Shown here piece by piece: positions 46,329 through 50,099 of a DNA stretch of 64,000 bases. The notes under the pieces are model-generated. The model ran no database searches. It was not told the origin of the DNA and was given only the letters and a program-made list of their open reading frames with translations. The stretch comes from Parcubacteria group bacterium RIFCSPLOWO2_01_FULL_48_18 (lineage in GTDB: Bacteria > Patescibacteriota > Minisyncoccia > UBA6257 > WO2-01-48-18), in NCBI GenBank assembly GCA_001824435.1, contig MHXH01000018.1, positions 1,458-65,457 of the forward strand, written 5' to 3'. Each line of letters begins with the position of its first letter. The first letter of the stretch is position 1. The position numbers and the translations under genes were made by a program.

Positions 46329-49300
46329 TTGTCAATGAAAAAATACAATTTTAGAACAATCGAATCGTTCTGGCAGAAAGAATGGCGCACGGAACAAATC
46401 CATGAGCCGAACTTCTCGCGACCGCAAAAACCCTTTCGGCAAGCTCTTCAGCCGCGAGCTCAGGGCCGAGTGGCTCGGGGCAGGCCTTTTTATAATCTCA
46501 TGATGTTCCCGTATCCGTCTGCCGAAGGACTCCATGTCGGCAATATGTACGCATTCACCGGCTCGGACATTTACGGCAGGTTTAAACGCATGCAAGGATA
46601 TGACGTATTCGAACCGATCGGGCTTGACGGCTTTGGCATCCACAGCGAAAACTACGCGCTCAAAACCAACCAGCATCCGATGAAACTTGCGGAAAAATCA
46701 GAGAAGAATTTTTACCGCCAGCTCCGGATGCTCGGAAACAGTTTTGCATGGAACGAAACGCTCGAAACCTACGATCCGGAATATTACAAGTGGACCCAAT
46801 GGATTTTAACGGAAATGTTCAAACGCGGGCTCATGTACCGGAAGAAGGCAGCGGTGAATTGGTGCCCATCGTGCAAAACCGTGCTTGCGGATGAACAAGT
46901 TTTGCAGAAATCTCAAGTCTCAAGTCCCAAATCTCAAAAAAACTCCAAACCCCAAATTCCAAATTCTGAACAAGACAAAGAAAATATTCCATATTCCAAA
47001 TTCCATATTCCAAATTCCAAAGTAGGGGCGTGCGAGAGATGCGAGACGCCGGTCGTGAAAAAAGAACTTGAACAGTGGTTTTTGAAAATTACGGATTATG
47101 CCGAACGGCTCTTGAGCGATCTGGAGAAAATCGATTGGTCTGAAAAAGTAAAAATCGCGCAGAGGAATTGGATCGGAAAATCTGAAGGAGCGGAGATTGA
47201 TTTTGAAATCCGGACGAAAGAAAAACCTAATTTCGTCCTACTTCACGGCTACACCGGGTCGCCAAAGCATAACTTCTTTCCTTGGCTTAAAAAAGAACTG
47301 GAGAAACGGGGATACAAGGTTCAGTCTCCAACCTTGCCGCATAGCGACGCATCCCGCGCAAACGAGAATGACGATATGGATGCGTTTCGGAAACAGGTGG
47401 AGTTAAACAGAAATACCGTACTTCTCGGCCATAGTTTGGGAACAATTGTGGCAATGAAGGCTCTTGAAAAGTTGGATTACCCGATCCGCAAACTTGCACT
47501 CGTTGGCGGATTTCTTGAGCCGCGCTTCCGCGACCACGCCCGATCCTTCACCAAAACGTTCAATTGGCGCTTTAACTTCGAAAAGATTAGGACGAACGCC
47601 GGAAAAATCACGATATTACATGACCCTAACGACCGAGCTATCCCATACGATCAGGGCGTGAAGCTCCACGACGCGCTCGGCGGCGAACTTATCGAGCCAA
47701 TACCGAAAAAATCACACTTCTGCGGAAAGGAAGAACCGGAAATTTTAAAATATGCTCTTGATCGTCTTACCGTCTTCACCACGCGACCGGACACGATTTT
47801 TGGCGCAACCTATATGGTGCTGGCGCCGGAACATCCGCTAGTCAAGAATCTGGAATCTGGAATTTTGAATTTGGAAAGAGTTAAAGATTATATCCGAAAA
47901 ACAAAAAACAAATCAGAGGAAGAACGAATTGCCGATGGGCGCGAAAAGACCGGTGTTGAACTAAAAGGAATAAAAGCAATAAATCCCGCAAACGGCGAAG
48001 AAATTCCGGTGTGGGTCGCGGATTATGTATTGAATTCGGTGGGCACAGGAGCAATCATGGCCGTGCCAGCGCACGATGAGCGAGATTTTGAGTTTGCGAA
48101 GAAATACAAACTGCCCATCATAGAGGTCGTTGAGCCCTTATTTGTAAAAACCGATGACATAGACGGAGTTCGCCCCGGATTGCCTCTTAAGGAGAGAAGC
48201 GCAATCGTTGCGGTTGTGAAGCACTGGTCCGAGGACAAATATCTTTGTCTAAAATGGAAAAAAACGGATTGGCGGGGATTTATTATTGGCGGCATCGAGG
48301 AAGACGAGGATATGGCTGAAGCCGCGGCTCGCGAGATTCGCGAAGAAACCGGTTATGCATCGGCAAGGTTTATCAGGAACTTAGGCGGTATTGTCCACGC
48401 GCGGTTTTATCATGCGGTGAAGAACGAAAATCGATGGGCCCGTTTTCACGGCTTATATTTTGAGTTAGCTGACGGAACAAGAGAGAAAATCTCCGACGAG
48501 GAAAAACAGATTCACGACGTGGTTTGGGTAGACAGAAAAGAAGTTGACCATTTCCTTGATTGGGTTACGGATATGCGTTTGATATGGCATAGGGTCTCAA
48601 GCCCGGACGACTTTCCCGGCCGGAACGACATTCACGAATCAAGCCGGGTAAACAAACAAGGTGTTTTAGCGTGCTCGGGGGAATTTAACGGAATGAACTC
48701 AGGGGAGGCGAAATGGAAGATCACCAATTTTGTAGGCGGCAAGCGGGGGAATCGGTATCGTCTCCGCGACTGGTTAATATCGCGCCAGCGCTACTGGGGG
48801 CCGCCAATACCGCTAATTTTTTGCGAAAACTGTGCAAACAAAATTAAGGAAGCCCCTCGACAAGCTCGGGGCAAATTCACCAAAGGTGAATTTGAAAACC
48901 CCGGATGGATTCCGGTGCCGGAAAAAGACTTACCCGTAAAACTTCCGTATGTAAAAGGTTTTCGACCCAGGGGAAAGGGGCAGTCGCCGCTTGCTTCGGT
49001 AAAATCTTTTTATGAGGTAAACTGCCCACGCTGCGGCAGTAGAGCGCGCGGAGAAACTGATGTTTCTGACACCTTTCTTGATTCTTCTTGGTATTACTTC
49101 GGCTACCTCGCAAAAGAAAATTCTAAATTCGAAATTCTAAATTCCAAATTCCGGGGCCGAGCAAAACAATGGCTGCCGGTTGACATGTATATCGGCGGGG
49201 CAGAGCATTCGGTTTTACATCTCCTTTACACACGTTTTATTACGAAAGTATTCCACGATTGGAAACTCATTAATTTCAACGAACCGTTTAAAAGATTCCG

Positions 49301-50099
49301 CGCTCACGGACTCCTTATAAAAGATGGCGCCAAAATGTCAAAGTCAAAGGGCAATGTCGTGAATCCTGATTTTTATATCAAGGAATTCGGCGCCGATGCG
49401 CTCCGGATGTATCTCATGTTTCTGGGGCCGTTTGAGCAAGGCGGCGATTTTCAGGATCGAGGAATACTGGGGATAACGAGATTTTTAGAAAGAGTGTGGA
49501 ACTTGTGTCAAAAATCCGAAATCCAAAATCCGAAATCCAAAACAAATTCTAATGACAAAAATCAAAATGACAAAAACATTGAAAGGGCCCTACACAAAAC
49601 CGTAAAAAAGGTTACCGAAGATATTGAAAACTTGCATTACAATACTGCAATCAGCGCGCTGATGATTTTGCTCAACGAAATGGAAAAAAACTCTTCTCGC
49701 TTGTCGCTCTTGGCTCTTCGCTCGTTTTTAAAATTGCTTGCTCCGTTTGCGCCGCATATCACCGAAGAATTGTGGTCCCGATTTTTTGATCCCCAAAAAT
49801 TGAAGACCCCCGATTCGCAAAGCGAATCGGGACACAATTCCTCCAAAAAGTATCGATCGGTCCACAAAGAATCGTGGCCCATATACGATCCAGCGTTAAC
49901 CGAGGAAGATACATTCAAGCTGGTCGTACAGGTAAACGGCAGAGTCCGTGATACGATTACCGCGCGAAAGGGAATCTCACAAAAAGAAGCAGAAGCGCTC
50001 GCGCGCACATCAGAGAACGTAATGCGTCACCTCGACAAAAAAGCCGCCAAAAAGATAATCCTTGTTAAGGATCGACTGATCAACTTTGTCCTCCAATAG
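46329..50099 (+). CDS. leuS: Leucyl-tRNA synthetase with inserted alpha/beta-hydrolase and Nudix domains and three low-complexity in-frame inserts (1256 aa)
   Basis: HVGNMY (HIGH variant), KMSKS, editing-domain blocks [21 protein letters not shown] and [47 protein letters not shown]. Inserted GHSLG esterase-like domain at about 47215-47770 and a Nudix box [22 protein letters not shown] at about 48190-48600. Confidence 0.9.
   Translation: [1256 protein letters not shown]
46909..47022. repeat. Short-unit repeat (TCTCAAGTC / CCAAATTCC / ATATTCCAAATTCC) inside the leuS reading frame
   Basis: Translates in frame as [39 protein letters not shown] between the LeuS zinc-knuckle cysteines. Confidence 0.8.
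49127..49153. repeat. AATTCTAAATTCGAAATTCTAAATTCCAAATTCC repeat copy inside leuS
   Basis: Encodes [13 protein letters not shown]. Confidence 0.7.
49511..49577. repeat. AAATCCGAAATCCAAAATCC... repeat copy inside leuS
   Basis: Encodes [22 protein letters not shown]. Confidence 0.7.

Follow-up and report, generated by a model that had tools for sequence, protein, structure and literature searches.

A Patescibacteria leucyl-tRNA synthetase with a serine hydrolase and a Nudix hydrolase inserted into its editing domain

The stretch of DNA analysed here (the window, 64,000 nucleotides) contains a leuS gene of unusual length, and an initial annotation had proposed that its product, leucyl-tRNA synthetase (LeuRS), carries two complete hydrolase domains. 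This raises the questions of what the inserted segments are, how they behave in related organisms, and what they might do within a synthetase.

The leuS gene and its product

The length of 1256 residues given in the initial annotation is correct for translation from a TTG codon. The true start is probably the ATG at 46335, partly on the basis of homologue consensus, and this gives 1254 residues. The product matched the NCBIfam profile leuS_bact (TIGR00396) with 836.6 bits (cutoff 548.4), in six stretches because of the inserts, and Pfam identified tRNA-synt_1, tRNA-synt_1_2 (the editing domain, in two pieces), Anticodon_1, NUDIX and Ser_hydrolase. The features of the locus are as follows.

43864..44739, + strand: tatD
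46329..50099, + strand: leuS open reading frame, bacterial-type LeuRS (counted from TTG)
46533..46544, + strand: HVGN, the class I 'HIGH' signature, residues 69-72
46908..47024, + strand: low-complexity insert of 39 residues in the ZN1 region, residues 194-232
47223..47762, + strand: insert 1, complete YdeN/RBBP9-type alpha/beta serine hydrolase, residues 299-478 (Pfam, alignment, fold)
47427..47441, + strand: GHSLG nucleophile elbow, residues 367-371, with Ser369 the predicted nucleophile
47622..47624, + strand: Asp432, predicted triad acid
47715..47717, + strand: His463, predicted triad base
47763..48134, + strand: CP1 editing domain, first part, residues 479-602
47778-47795, + strand: T-rich motif TTRPDT, residues 484-489, in the first part of CP1
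48072-48086, + strand: HDERD, residues 582-586, with the universal editing Asp586, in the first part of CP1
48135..48650, + strand: insert 2, complete minimal MutT-like Nudix domain with linkers, residues 603-774
48288..48356, + strand: Nudix box [23 protein letters not shown], residues 654-676
48651..49319, + strand: end of CP1 and second half of the catalytic Rossmann fold, residues 775-997
49332..49346, + strand: KMSKS loop, residues 1002-1006
49569..49973, + strand: anticodon-binding domain (Pfam Anticodon_1), residues 1081-1215, followed by the C-terminal tRNA-binding domain

The domain order and the motifs HxGx, KMSKS, TTRPDT, GTG (GTGAIM, at residue 572) and HDxRD are those of the LeuRS enzymes of Thermus thermophilus (1h3n, 2bte) and E. 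coli (4aq7, 4arc), and the modelled CP1 core superposed on solved editing domains with an rmsd of 1.6-2.5 A. HxGx and the KMSKS loop were kept in all architecture classes found among relatives, and the CP1 editing site and the other LeuRS motifs were intact in every class. Judged by its sequence, this bacterial LeuRS, from a member of the Patescibacteria (CPR), is of working type. Unlike the T. thermophilus and E. coli enzymes, it has two additional enzyme domains inside CP1 and extra low-complexity inserts, and alignment to 1h3n together with motif comparison showed that the leucine-specific domain is missing. The 39-residue insert is absent from T. thermophilus LeuRS and most homologues, and more low-complexity stretches lie close to the C-terminus. 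These stretches, the 39-residue insert and the loss of the leucine-specific domain had been passed over in the initial annotation.

Alignment to 1h3n placed both inserts at the points previously proposed, with the flanking peptides as described. Their sizes needed small revisions, from about 185 and 140 residues to about 180 for the hydrolase and 172, linkers included, for the Nudix domain. Insert 1 occupies the turn of the first CP1 beta-hairpin, where it stands in for about one residue (T. thermophilus 240-242), and this site (site 1) is five residues ahead of T484 of the TTRPDT motif. Insert 2, at site 2, takes the place of a 14-residue CP1 loop (T. thermophilus 364-377).

Apart from the unusual length of the LeuRS, nothing suggests that the inserts are an artefact or a selfish element, be it a chimera, an intein or a transposon-derived insertion absent from the mature enzyme. 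The probability of such an origin is negligible, and it is already refuted for practical purposes. The leuS frame is continuous, composition does not shift where the inserts begin and end, no repeats flank them, and in the predicted structure the inserts are packed onto CP1. The same junctions were found in more than 100 independent Patescibacteria contigs from NCBI, JGI, ENA and Logan. Recurrence of the architecture in contigs from four data sources excludes an assembly chimera, the misjoin that had been raised as an alternative. An intein was likewise rejected: neither junction (...[11 protein letters not shown]...; ...[10 protein letters not shown]...) has the residues typical of splicing, namely Cys, Ser or Ala at the N-terminal end and His-Asn with a following Cys, Ser or Thr at the C-terminal end, and the inserts contain no endonuclease domain, their Pfam matches being to hydrolase folds only.

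In relatives the gene order metG-tatD-leuS is conserved; in the window two small minus-strand open reading frames (44766-45728 and 45882-46265) lie between tatD and leuS.

Fold and catalytic residues of the inserts

Ser_hydrolase (PF06821, cutoff 22) matched residues 303-456 of the full LeuRS with 29.9 bits. When insert 1 was scanned alone the score rose to 35.1 bits, covering profile positions 2-153 of 172. Full-length matches were obtained to Bacillus subtilis YdeN (1uxo, E=4e-10) and human RBBP9 (E=1e-8), and the model of insert 1 matched the RBBP9 fold (TMt 0.79-0.84) and superposed on the Phe-bound form (7oex). Insert 1 shares with these proteins a minimal alpha/beta hydrolase of about 180-190 residues, a GxSxG elbow and a Ser-Asp-His triad; it differs from them in sitting in a loop of another enzyme, and its identity to them is only about 22-25%. 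The GHSLG elbow had been recognised previously. Among 87 hydrolase copies, Ser369, Gly371 and His463 were conserved in 100%, His368 and the HG oxyanion motif (H306-G307) in 95% and Asp432 in at least 90%, at a mean identity of only 44%.

Within the family only RBBP9 has been characterised; it hydrolyses aminoacyl derivatives through an aminoacyl-enzyme, and a free alpha-amine is obligatory (PMC8866121). The residue that anchors this amine, Glu108, is not clearly conserved in insert 1. In a phmmer alignment whose loops are unreliable, Glu108, Ser76 and Tyr99 of RBBP9 correspond to Ala, Leu370 and Phe, with a conserved aspartate, Asp401, two positions from Glu108.

Insert 2 matched NUDIX (PF00293) at residues 634-743, with 50.9 bits in the full LeuRS (cutoff 21.1) and 53.9 bits when scanned alone. 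The Nudix box, which had been called near-canonical, fits the consensus GX5EX7REUXEEXGU exactly (G654-X5-E660-X7-R668-E669-I-X-E672-E673-X-G675-Y676, the tyrosine being the last hydrophobic residue). G654 was conserved in 100% and E669, E672, E673 and G675 in at least 97% of copies (27-75 copies), and mean identity among 75 copies was only 34%. The AF2 model (pLDDT 93, pTM 0.87) is an alpha/beta/alpha sandwich with 535 Nudix matches in the PDB at E<=1e-3 (best TMt 0.80); its neighbours include Ap4A hydrolases (3i7u, 4mpo, 1f3y), NTP pyrophosphohydrolases and RppH, at 15-25% identity. Minimal MutT-type Nudix enzymes such as Aquifex 3i7u, Enterococcus faecalis 2azw, NudI/YfaO, Chlamydia CT771 and E. 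coli RppH have the same canonical box and fold. The domain described here is likewise only 15-25% identical to these enzymes and differs from them in having its own subfamily signature (LxWKK ahead of the box, HK..NR and W733 behind it) and in being embedded in LeuRS, encoded beside leuS or joined to an anticodon-binding domain of ProRS type.

When CP1 and both inserts were modelled together with AlphaFold as a three-domain construct of 518 residues (pTM 0.80, pLDDT 89.5), both inserts were predicted to pack on CP1 in a fixed arrangement. Since this LeuRS is rich in inserted domains and low-complexity expansions, the inserts might lack catalytic activity and enlarge CP1 for structural or regulatory purposes, for example as ligand sensors or spacers. 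This is very improbable: in domains that have otherwise diverged to 34-44% identity, 90-100% of copies keep the residues of the Ser-Asp-His triad, those of the HG oxyanion motif and the glutamates of the Nudix box. Pfam, alignment and the retention of catalytic residues in 75-87 diverged homologues thus bear out the proposal that these are two complete hydrolase domains and not linkers or ordinary CP1 expansions.

Distribution and turnover of the inserts in relatives

The more than 100 Patescibacteria contigs share the general design and vary in its details. Their LeuRS proteins contain one to three Nudix domains, one or two hydrolases, or a methyltransferase or Ham1 domain instead, at two to three sites, and hydrolase and Nudix domains also occur in tandem. 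Site 2 holds a TehB-like methyltransferase in one LeuRS (L014) and, in another (P0024), a hydrolase of the same family as insert 1, placed there independently of site 1; a third LeuRS (P0156) has Ham1/ITPase at the third site. Each insert is present in some and absent from other LeuRS cores that are about 91% identical, so that both are dispensable. Across relatives they behave as optional modules that can be exchanged, and LeuRS accepts them at two or three permissive sites. No earlier description of a LeuRS with swappable embedded hydrolases was found in the literature.

Two LeuRS proteins with cores 93% identical (P0060 and P0113) have hydrolase inserts only 39% identical, with sharp boundaries, and another pair (P0055 and P0071) is 92% identical in the core and 39% in the Nudix domain. 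Within the inserts pS was 0.65-0.88 against a background of 0-0.5, and some inserts are more alike than the LeuRS cores that carry them. Near-identical cores with divergent or absent inserts, sharp boundaries and saturated synonymous divergence indicate that inserts are probably exchanged as cassettes. The modules are under purifying selection, which for the Nudix domain equals that on the LeuRS core where the domain is vertically inherited (pN 0.18-0.21 and 0.15-0.22 respectively, in one clade). We regard the anatomy of the inserts and this evolutionary behaviour as nearly certain.

Cassette-like turnover, a combinatorial repertoire and variable copy number could reflect an arms race. Interchangeable enzymes of repair or toxin defence would then dock on CP1, which captures the tRNA 3' end, and would strip damaging modifications such as acyl groups, pyrophosphates or caps from tRNA(Leu) ends, or destroy aminoacyl-nucleotide antibiotics directed at LeuRS. 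Toxins that pyrophosphorylate or extend the CCA ends of tRNA exist (PMC11559606, PMC11541572), and Nudix chemistry would suit removal of a pyrophosphate. RppH-like fold neighbours of the Nudix domain act on RNA ends; however, we know of no Nudix enzyme that repairs tRNA 3' ends. Moreover, no genes for toxins, immunity or defence were seen to adjoin leuS, either in the window or at the loci of relatives, the Nudix domain has evolved no faster than the core in the one clade, and the recombination mosaic spans the whole leuS gene rather than the inserts alone, so that turnover may reflect general recombination and old polymorphism. We consider a role in such conflicts improbable.

Possible roles of the inserts in LeuRS

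The best explanation, which we put forward tentatively, is that the two complete accessory enzymes carried in CP1 work in cis with the synthetase on compounds handled during aminoacylation and editing. That the inserts are accessory hydrolases for substrates of the aminoacylation cycle is the most likely reading; their functional coupling to LeuRS and tRNA is moderately supported, and the substrates named below are guesses.

The hosts of the Nudix subfamily were surveyed in the 150 best 50%-identity clusters. The domain lay in LeuRS or LeuRS fragments in 107 of these, found with a profile built from LeuRS-embedded copies that biases top matches to LeuRS, and was free-standing in about 28. The only other clear domain partner among the 150 clusters was a ProRS-type anticodon-binding domain (P0206, P0223), and no multidomain host other than an aminoacyl-tRNA synthetase (aaRS) was found among them. 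The subfamily thus occurs almost exclusively within, or beside, aaRS or tRNA-recognition modules. One free-standing copy (P0146) ends one nucleotide ahead of leuS and its relative (P0286) lies 580 nucleotides upstream of a plain leuS; these two represent one lineage, and the other three of five free-standing contexts are away from leuS. Free-standing YdeN-type genes have contexts unrelated to leuS. Coupling is favoured by the Nudix hosts, by the P0146 and P0286 loci, by the occurrence of the hydrolase at both site 1 and site 2, and by the closeness of site 1 to T484. Against it stand the dispensability of the inserts, the mixture of passengers, the free-standing copies away from leuS and the intact editing site, which in every class leaves nothing for the inserts to replace. 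The intact site, the dispensability and the mixture of passengers also leave the chimeric proofreading synthetase envisaged in the initial annotation a hypothesis.

The same observations bear on a rival possibility: LeuRS, being essential and constitutively expressed, may serve bacteria with very small genomes as a carrier in whose insertion-tolerant surface loops ordinary house-cleaning enzymes are parked. Insert 1 would then be an esterase or aminopeptidase and the Nudix domain an NTP or dinucleotide pyrophosphatase, both acting on free metabolites and mechanistically unlinked to LeuRS. Taken together, a methyltransferase, a second hydrolase and Ham1 resemble an assortment of house-cleaning enzymes more than the parts of a single coupled mechanism. 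Presence and absence of inserts in near-identical cores, free-standing homologues of both families in unrelated contexts and NTP pyrophosphohydrolases among the Nudix fold neighbours point the same way, as do the NTPase_I-T and tatD genes that neighbour leuS, which form a nucleotide-sanitation theme, and a HAD-type insert in DPANN AlaRS, which suggests that synthetases generally tolerate passengers. However, a passenger would not need the confidently predicted packing between domains, and the almost exclusive association of the Nudix domain with aaRS and an anticodon-binding domain, the recurrence of the hydrolase at two distinct CP1 sites and the tight coupling of Nudix and leuS genes in one lineage also argue against it. 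We consider this possibility unlikely, though a serious one.

If the inserts do act in cis with LeuRS, the serine hydrolase might, like RBBP9, form an acyl-enzyme (aminoacyl-Ser369) in attacking alpha-aminoacyl esters or amides. It could thereby add a second deacylation activity for substrates that escape the classical CP1 pocket, whether aminoacyl-tRNA(Leu) or aminoacyl compounds after their release. By analogy, a deacylase role gains plausibility because RBBP9 forms an aminoacyl-enzyme and requires the free alpha-amine. Nudix enzymes cleave pyrophosphate bonds of nucleoside diphosphate-X compounds. With Mg2+, Glu669, Glu672 and Glu673 may cleave such a bond in an adenine-nucleotide by-product (for example Ap4A or Ap3A) or an aberrant NTP, or alternatively at the tRNA terminus adjoining CP1. 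The fold neighbours of the model would fit substrates of the Ap4A or NTP type, or else the 5' ends of RNA. Hydrolysis of mis-activated adenylates, as suggested in the initial annotation, is disfavoured: aminoacyl adenylates are acyl-phosphates, and their hydrolysis is outside the expected Nudix chemistry.

Hydrolytic modules that occur both embedded and free-standing, sometimes nearby, are familiar from ProRS (INS/YbaK), AlaRS (editing domain/AlaX) and archaeal ThrRS (DTD-like), and the same holds here. In contrast to those modules, the LeuRS inserts belong to unrelated superfamilies, neither showing homology to YbaK/ProX, AlaX or DTD in Pfam, NCBIfam or the PDB, and are added to a synthetase with an intact editing site. 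To our knowledge the alpha/beta hydrolase and Nudix superfamilies have never been implicated in aaRS editing. The NCBIfam family NF040702 ('isoleucine-tRNA ligase, N-acetyltransferase domain-containing'), for which we know of no combinatorial or cassette behaviour, involves another synthetase and another domain (the window LeuRS scored 48 bits against a cutoff of 1999), but it likewise joins a class Ia synthetase to an unrelated catalytic domain.

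The window LeuRS and its two inserts

The leuS gene occupies an uninterrupted plus-strand ORF (46329-50099) encoding 1256 aa counted from a TTG codon, and its base composition is free of breaks along the whole gene. The ATG at 46335 (MKKYNF...), two codons past the TTG at 46329, fits the homologue N-terminal consensus MKYD..KIE.KWQ and is probably the true start. The initial annotation had described a leucyl-tRNA synthetase with an inserted hydrolase and an inserted Nudix domain, and the peptides that it quoted were all found in this ORF. Pfam searches identified the class I catalytic domain, the LeuRS editing domain (CP1) in two stretches and the anticodon-binding domain, together with NUDIX at aa 634-743 (50.9 bits, cutoff 21.1) and Ser_hydrolase (PF06821) at aa 303-456 (29.9 bits, cutoff 22). 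The NCBIfam bacterial LeuRS equivalog matched in six stretches with 836.6 bits (cutoff 548). The anatomy of the protein was fixed by residue-by-residue alignment with Thermus thermophilus LeuRS (Tt; 1h3n), which delimited both inserts.

Segments of the window LeuRS aligned with Tt (1h3n)
aa 4-193 and 233-298: Tt 2-240
aa 194-232 (window 46908-47024, plus strand): third insert of 39 aa, low-complexity and non-enzymatic
aa 299-478: insert 1, without Tt counterpart (Tt 240-242)
aa 479-602: Tt 242-363
aa 603-774: insert 2, in place of Tt 364-377
aa 775-997 and 1000-1255: remainder of Tt

The leucine-specific domain of Tt (579-634) is absent from the window LeuRS in this alignment. Low-complexity stretches rich in Ser, Lys, Asn and Gln occur at 46908-47024, ~49500-49570 and ~49790-49860 (aa 194-232, ~1063-1083 and ~1157-1178); they vary among homologues and are not present in T. 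thermophilus LeuRS.

Searched in isolation, both inserts matched the families first proposed for them. Insert 1 gave 35.1 bits with Ser_hydrolase and 35.0 bits with Abhydrolase_1 in Pfam, and phmmer matched its whole length to Bacillus subtilis YdeN (1uxo; E=4e-10) and human RBBP9 (E=1e-8). In an AlphaFold model of aa 283-800, it superposes on nearly all of RBBP9 (TMt 0.79-0.84, rmsd ~2.6 A, 181 columns); the structures matched include 7oex, in which RBBP9 has phenylalanine bound. Insert 2 gave 53.9 bits with NUDIX, and its Nudix box matches the consensus exactly. A Nudix model made with 27 diverse copies as input reached pLDDT 93 and pTM 0.87. Its closest solved folds are minimal MutT-type enzymes (Aquifex Ap4A hydrolase 3i7u, Enterococcus faecalis 2azw, NudI, YfaO, Chlamydia CT771 and Escherichia coli RppH), at 15-25% identity, and the predicted fold places the insert among enzymes for NTPs, dinucleoside polyphosphates or RNA 5′ ends. 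Assignment of a substrate class from sequence or fold was rejected, as Ap4A, NTP and RppH neighbours are mixed and all lie below 25% identity. As for the substrates suggested earlier, Ap4A is possible, whereas aminoacyl adenylates are at odds with Nudix chemistry.

Site 1, which holds the hydrolase, is the turn in the first beta-hairpin of CP1, and site 2, which holds the Nudix domain, is the loop following the HDxRD strand. The threonine-rich motif lining the editing pocket starts at aa 484, shortly after the end of the hydrolase at aa 478. A 518-aa construct comprising CP1 and both inserts was predicted with a mean pLDDT of 89.5 and a pTM of 0.80, with disorder confined to the linker past the Nudix domain (~aa 763-775). 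This model suggests that CP1 and the two inserts form a defined three-domain assembly. Sites 1 and 2 lie outside the coverage of a paper on the CP1 hairpin (PMC4138327).

Recurrence, conservation and domain repertoire

Protein searches retrieved full-length relatives with 46-57% identity from NCBI, JGI, ENA and Logan assemblies, the named ones being Liptonbacteria, Sungbacteria, Paceibacterota, Parcubacteria or Patescibacteria. When the query and its best 120 relatives were aligned, 46 carried both inserts, 41 the hydrolase only, 29 a site-2 insert only and five none, and insert lengths were near-constant at ~178 aa (hydrolase) and ~158 aa (Nudix). One or both inserts were also present in ~25 LeuRS genes among 80 loci from species-representative genomes. 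This independent recurrence across genomes rules out an assembly chimera, which the initial annotation had named as an alternative. Sequences of this architecture are already public under uninformative and inconsistent names: such LeuRS are now called 'alpha/beta fold hydrolase' or 'class I tRNA ligase family protein', which is a warning for annotation.

At five leuS loci (L003, L045, L056, L068 and L072), long tblastn matches had suggested a gene split by an interrupting ORF of 260-290 aa. That reading fell when Pfam searches revealed the ordinary metG-tatD-leuS order, with MetRS matching the LeuRS N terminus. In a Candidatus Gracilibacteria locus (L050:6001-9447), leuS appears in short ORF pieces under table 11, which fits the UGA-recoded code of that lineage; its fragment 6958-7476 matches the hydrolase-insert profile.

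Catalytic residues are strongly conserved in both inserts (window LeuRS numbering). Across 87 hydrolase copies (mean identity 44%), Ser369, His463 and Gly371 are invariant, with conservation of at least 90% for Asp432 and of 95% for the His306-Gly oxyanion motif. Across 75 Nudix copies (mean identity 34%), Gly654 never varies, and conservation reaches at least 97% for Glu669, Glu672, Glu673 and Gly675; the subfamily-specific Lys698, Arg702 and Trp733 are also kept. The HxGx, TTRPDT, GTG, HDxRD and KMSKS motifs of LeuRS are intact in all four architecture classes. The inserts therefore supplement a working editing site, and the idea that they substitute for a degenerate one was ruled out. The LeuRS is intact, and its editing domain bears two intact hydrolases that are under selection and probably rigidly packed.

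The repertoire of inserted enzymes extends beyond these two families. A 1211-aa LeuRS of Candidatus Doudnabacteria (L014:5962-9594, JBBRWU010000001.1) carries the serine hydrolase at site 1 and, where the window has Nudix, a TehB/Methyltransf_23-like SAM methyltransferase (aa 590-744); another homologue (P0024, 1161 aa) has YdeN-type hydrolases at both sites. Exhaustive searching with a profile of the Nudix insert yielded 165 clusters at E<=1e-30. Its best 150 include LeuRS with two or three Nudix domains, with Nudix at site 1, with a Nudix-Nudix-hydrolase stack at site 1, with a hydrolase-hydrolase arrangement, and with Nudix-hydrolase at site 2; homologues P0134-P0143 are among those with further architectures. 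A third site, ahead of the anticodon-binding domain, holds Nudix or Ham1/ITPase in the same 150 clusters, as in P0156 (1330 aa), whose Ham1/ITPase (aa 984-1167) lies between the catalytic core and the anticodon-binding domain. In a 947-aa LeuRS (L022:1247-4087), more than 100 residues at site 2 are unmatched by Pfam and by the insert profiles, and may be another inserted domain.

A complete genome labelled 'Candidatus Pacearchaeota archaeon' (CP061211.1) encodes a bacterial-type LeuRS with a CPR-style hydrolase insert (L044:5995-9027), neighboured by Cdc48-type ATPase and Elp3-like genes, and a second locus with this label (L036) has a LeuRS with Nudix. The first genome also encodes, nearby, an AlaRS whose aa 232-323 are an inserted HAD-type hydrolase domain (L044:10047-12176); its leuS and alaS are separated by a Fic/DOC gene, with a free-standing TehB-like methyltransferase past alaS. 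These loci suggest CPR-to-DPANN transfer, and that enzyme insertions into synthetases extend past LeuRS.

Exchange of inserts between close relatives

A neighbour-joining tree was made from 750 core columns (LeuRS without inserts) of 174 sequences. About 35 presence/absence changes are needed on this tree at site 1 and ~42 at site 2. Close relatives differ in content: P0006 (both inserts) and P0041 (hydrolase only) are 91% identical in the core, as are P0030 (hydrolase) and P0110 (none), and P0084 (Nudix only) and P0097 (hydrolase only) share 80%. Insert and core identities are uncorrelated (Spearman 0.09 and -0.14). The cores of P0060 and P0113 are 93% identical and their hydrolases 39%; those of P0055 and P0071 are 92% identical and their Nudix domains 39%. 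The opposite pattern was found for P0020 and P0057 (core 71%, insert 80%). In sliding windows, the drop in identity starts directly past NWIGKSEG and stops at VFTTRPDT.

Nucleotide comparison of two pairs of loci revealed the same discordance at synonymous (pS) and non-synonymous (pN) positions.

Divergence in two pairs of leuS loci
L081 vs L082, leuS codons ~800-1016: pS 0, pN 0-0.01
L081 vs L082, 5′ core: pS 0.38-0.66, pN 0.02-0.03
L081 vs L082, hydrolase insert: pS 0.65-0.84, pN 0.44-0.51
L083 vs L084, five flanking genes: pS 0.08-0.46, pN 0.01-0.09
L083 vs L084, Nudix insert: pS 0.67-0.88, pN 0.32-0.55

On these values, the insert alleles are far older than the host genomes, which implies recombinational replacement or long-lived polymorphism. 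The leuS gene is itself a recombination mosaic. A single ancient insertion followed by simple vertical descent is ruled out for the Paceibacteria-like set by the number of changes and the lack of core-insert correlation, and is also contradicted by the sharp boundaries and saturated insert pS. Thus the hydrolase and Nudix modules are optional, combinatorial and swapped by recombination. No direct or inverted repeats or other marks of mobile elements were found at the insert borders in the window.

Vertical descent does hold inside one clade (L015, L016, L021 and L026), in which Nudix diverges at the pace of the LeuRS core: amino-acid identities are 0.67-0.72 and 0.69-0.78, and pN 0.18-0.21 and 0.15-0.22, respectively, with pS near saturation.

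These four Nudix-bearing LeuRS and that of L007 are labelled Bdellovibrionales, Muribaculaceae or 'Bacilli' (rabbit gut) and group with Patescibacteria on the core tree; these MAGs may carry unreliable organism labels. In both pairs of loci compared above, the contigs come from different samples, and leuS 3′ segments identical at synonymous sites adjoin segments with pS ~0.5; these genomes show strong local recombination mosaicism. L081 and L082 share just 21% identity in a small ORF ahead of metG.

Host range, possible functions and gene context

The Nudix subfamily is essentially limited to LeuRS, leuS-adjacent genes, free-standing copies and a fusion to a tRNA-anticodon-binding domain. Among the best 150 of 165 clusters, 107 represent LeuRS, whole or fragmentary, and ~28 consist of free-standing proteins (126-207 aa) that have a start and a stop of their own. 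The sole other clear partner in this set is a ~100-aa N-terminal domain in P0206 (251 aa) and P0223 (247 aa), which are 44% identical and may be complete genes or the C-terminal ends of a ProRS; the PDB matches of this domain (13 hits; best 1nj8 residues 284-360, E=7.6e-6) are all ProRS anticodon-binding domains, with Pfam HGTP_anticodon below threshold at 18.9 bits. One free-standing Nudix gene (P0146) stops 1 nt ahead of the start of a Nudix-bearing leuS, and a relative with 63% identity to it (P0286) is encoded in the same synteny, 580 nt ahead of a plain leuS of 807 aa.

Both of these belong to one lineage, and three of the five free-standing Nudix contexts are unrelated to leuS (P0288, P0289 and P0290, with other neighbours); a general Nudix-leuS neighbourhood was therefore rejected. 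A partial ORF past P0288, considered as a LeuRS, proved to be an epimerase. Stand-alone Nudix genes near leuS in L060, L023, L018 and L044 were discarded as evidence, scoring 19-49 bits against the insert profile, no better than generic NUDIX. The contexts of free-standing YdeN-type genes (29-48% identity to the insert) are unrelated to leuS.

The sole characterised member of the hydrolase family, RBBP9, is an aminopeptidase that requires a free alpha-amine and acts by an aminoacyl-enzyme route (PMC8866121); by analogy, this chemistry would carry over readily to aminoacyl esters. We tentatively propose, as a possibility short of probable, that the modules act in cis on substrates of the aminoacylation cycle. 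The serine hydrolase would be a second deacylase acting on aminoacyl esters, and the Nudix domain would clear adenine-nucleotide by-products or process a pyrophosphate at a tRNA end. The main rival, which we regard as rather unlikely, is that LeuRS merely carries house-cleaning enzymes. Generic house-cleaning is suggested by the other passengers (methyltransferase, ITPase) and by the neighbours (tatD, NTPase_I-T), the DPANN AlaRS with its HAD insert hints that tiny-genome synthetases may simply tolerate passengers, and the free-standing YdeN-type genes and three of five free-standing Nudix genes lie away from leuS. Against mere carriage stand the concentration of the Nudix subfamily in LeuRS, its ProRS-type anticodon-binding partner, the position of P0146 and P0286 upstream of leuS, and the placement of the YdeN family at two CP1 sites independently.

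Allele turnover would be best accounted for by a third reading, which we nevertheless consider distinctly improbable. Here CP1 of ultra-small bacteria and some DPANN would be a docking platform for fast-exchanged small enzymes (serine hydrolase, Nudix, methyltransferase, ITPase) directed at tRNA(Leu) ends or nucleotide-linked synthetase poisons. An enzyme essential for translation would in this way also serve as a modular device for repair or counter-defence, its cassettes recombining under conflict. Such a role is conceivable, as toxins that modify tRNA CCA ends are known (PMC11559606, PMC11541572).

A full-text search, with most subscription journals outside its scope, found no description of LeuRS with Nudix or serine-hydrolase inserts, or of their modularity. 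Appended or inserted synthetase domains are a known phenomenon, for example embedded and free-standing editing modules, and the NCBIfam IleRS with a GNAT domain is another synthetase carrying an added domain. Few enzymes are as conserved as aminoacyl-tRNA synthetases, and the editing domain of LeuRS has been validated as a drug target. Here, whole lineages graft an intact serine hydrolase and Nudix domain into it, and swap, duplicate and drop them between near-identical hosts. The most surprising element is this cassette exchange inside an essential gene, a natural case of in-frame domain exchange that bears on how recombination shapes CPR genomes. The inserts would reveal, in minimal genomes, a new layer of translational quality control or of tRNA/nucleotide hygiene. 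The uncharacterised bacterial YdeN family and the new Nudix subfamily gain a concrete, testable physiological context, and two or three permissive LeuRS insertion sites are identified for protein engineering.

The window is a normal Patescibacteria-like chromosomal region, with genes for FtsH, IF-2, GyrA, Rel, RecG, GlmS and giant surface proteins, and three for tRNA-Leu.

Genes around leuS and elsewhere in the window
1662-10172, minus: giant 2836-aa protein
13580-14133 and 31535-31617: three tRNA-Leu (CAA, TAA and TAG anticodons) and tRNA-Cys, in the same 64 kb as leuS
43864-44739: tatD, followed by two small minus-strand ORFs before leuS
44766-45728, minus: small ORF, no family match
45882-46265, minus: zinc-ribbon-like membrane protein
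50532-51629, minus: 365-aa protein without Pfam match, next after bpMoxR
51629-53200, minus: MoxR-type AAA ATPase (bpMoxR)
62008-63993, minus: 661-aa protein

Relatives have the order metG-tatD-leuS, and in some of them the tatD-leuS gap contains an NTPase_I-T gene or a small minus-strand ORF unlike those of the window. The two genes at 50532-53200, just downstream of leuS on the opposite strand, are possibly a MoxR-vWA pair. The 2836-aa and 661-aa proteins share CarboxypepD_reg, Big_5 and peptidoglycan-binding domains, and are probably surface proteins typical of episymbiotic CPR bacteria.
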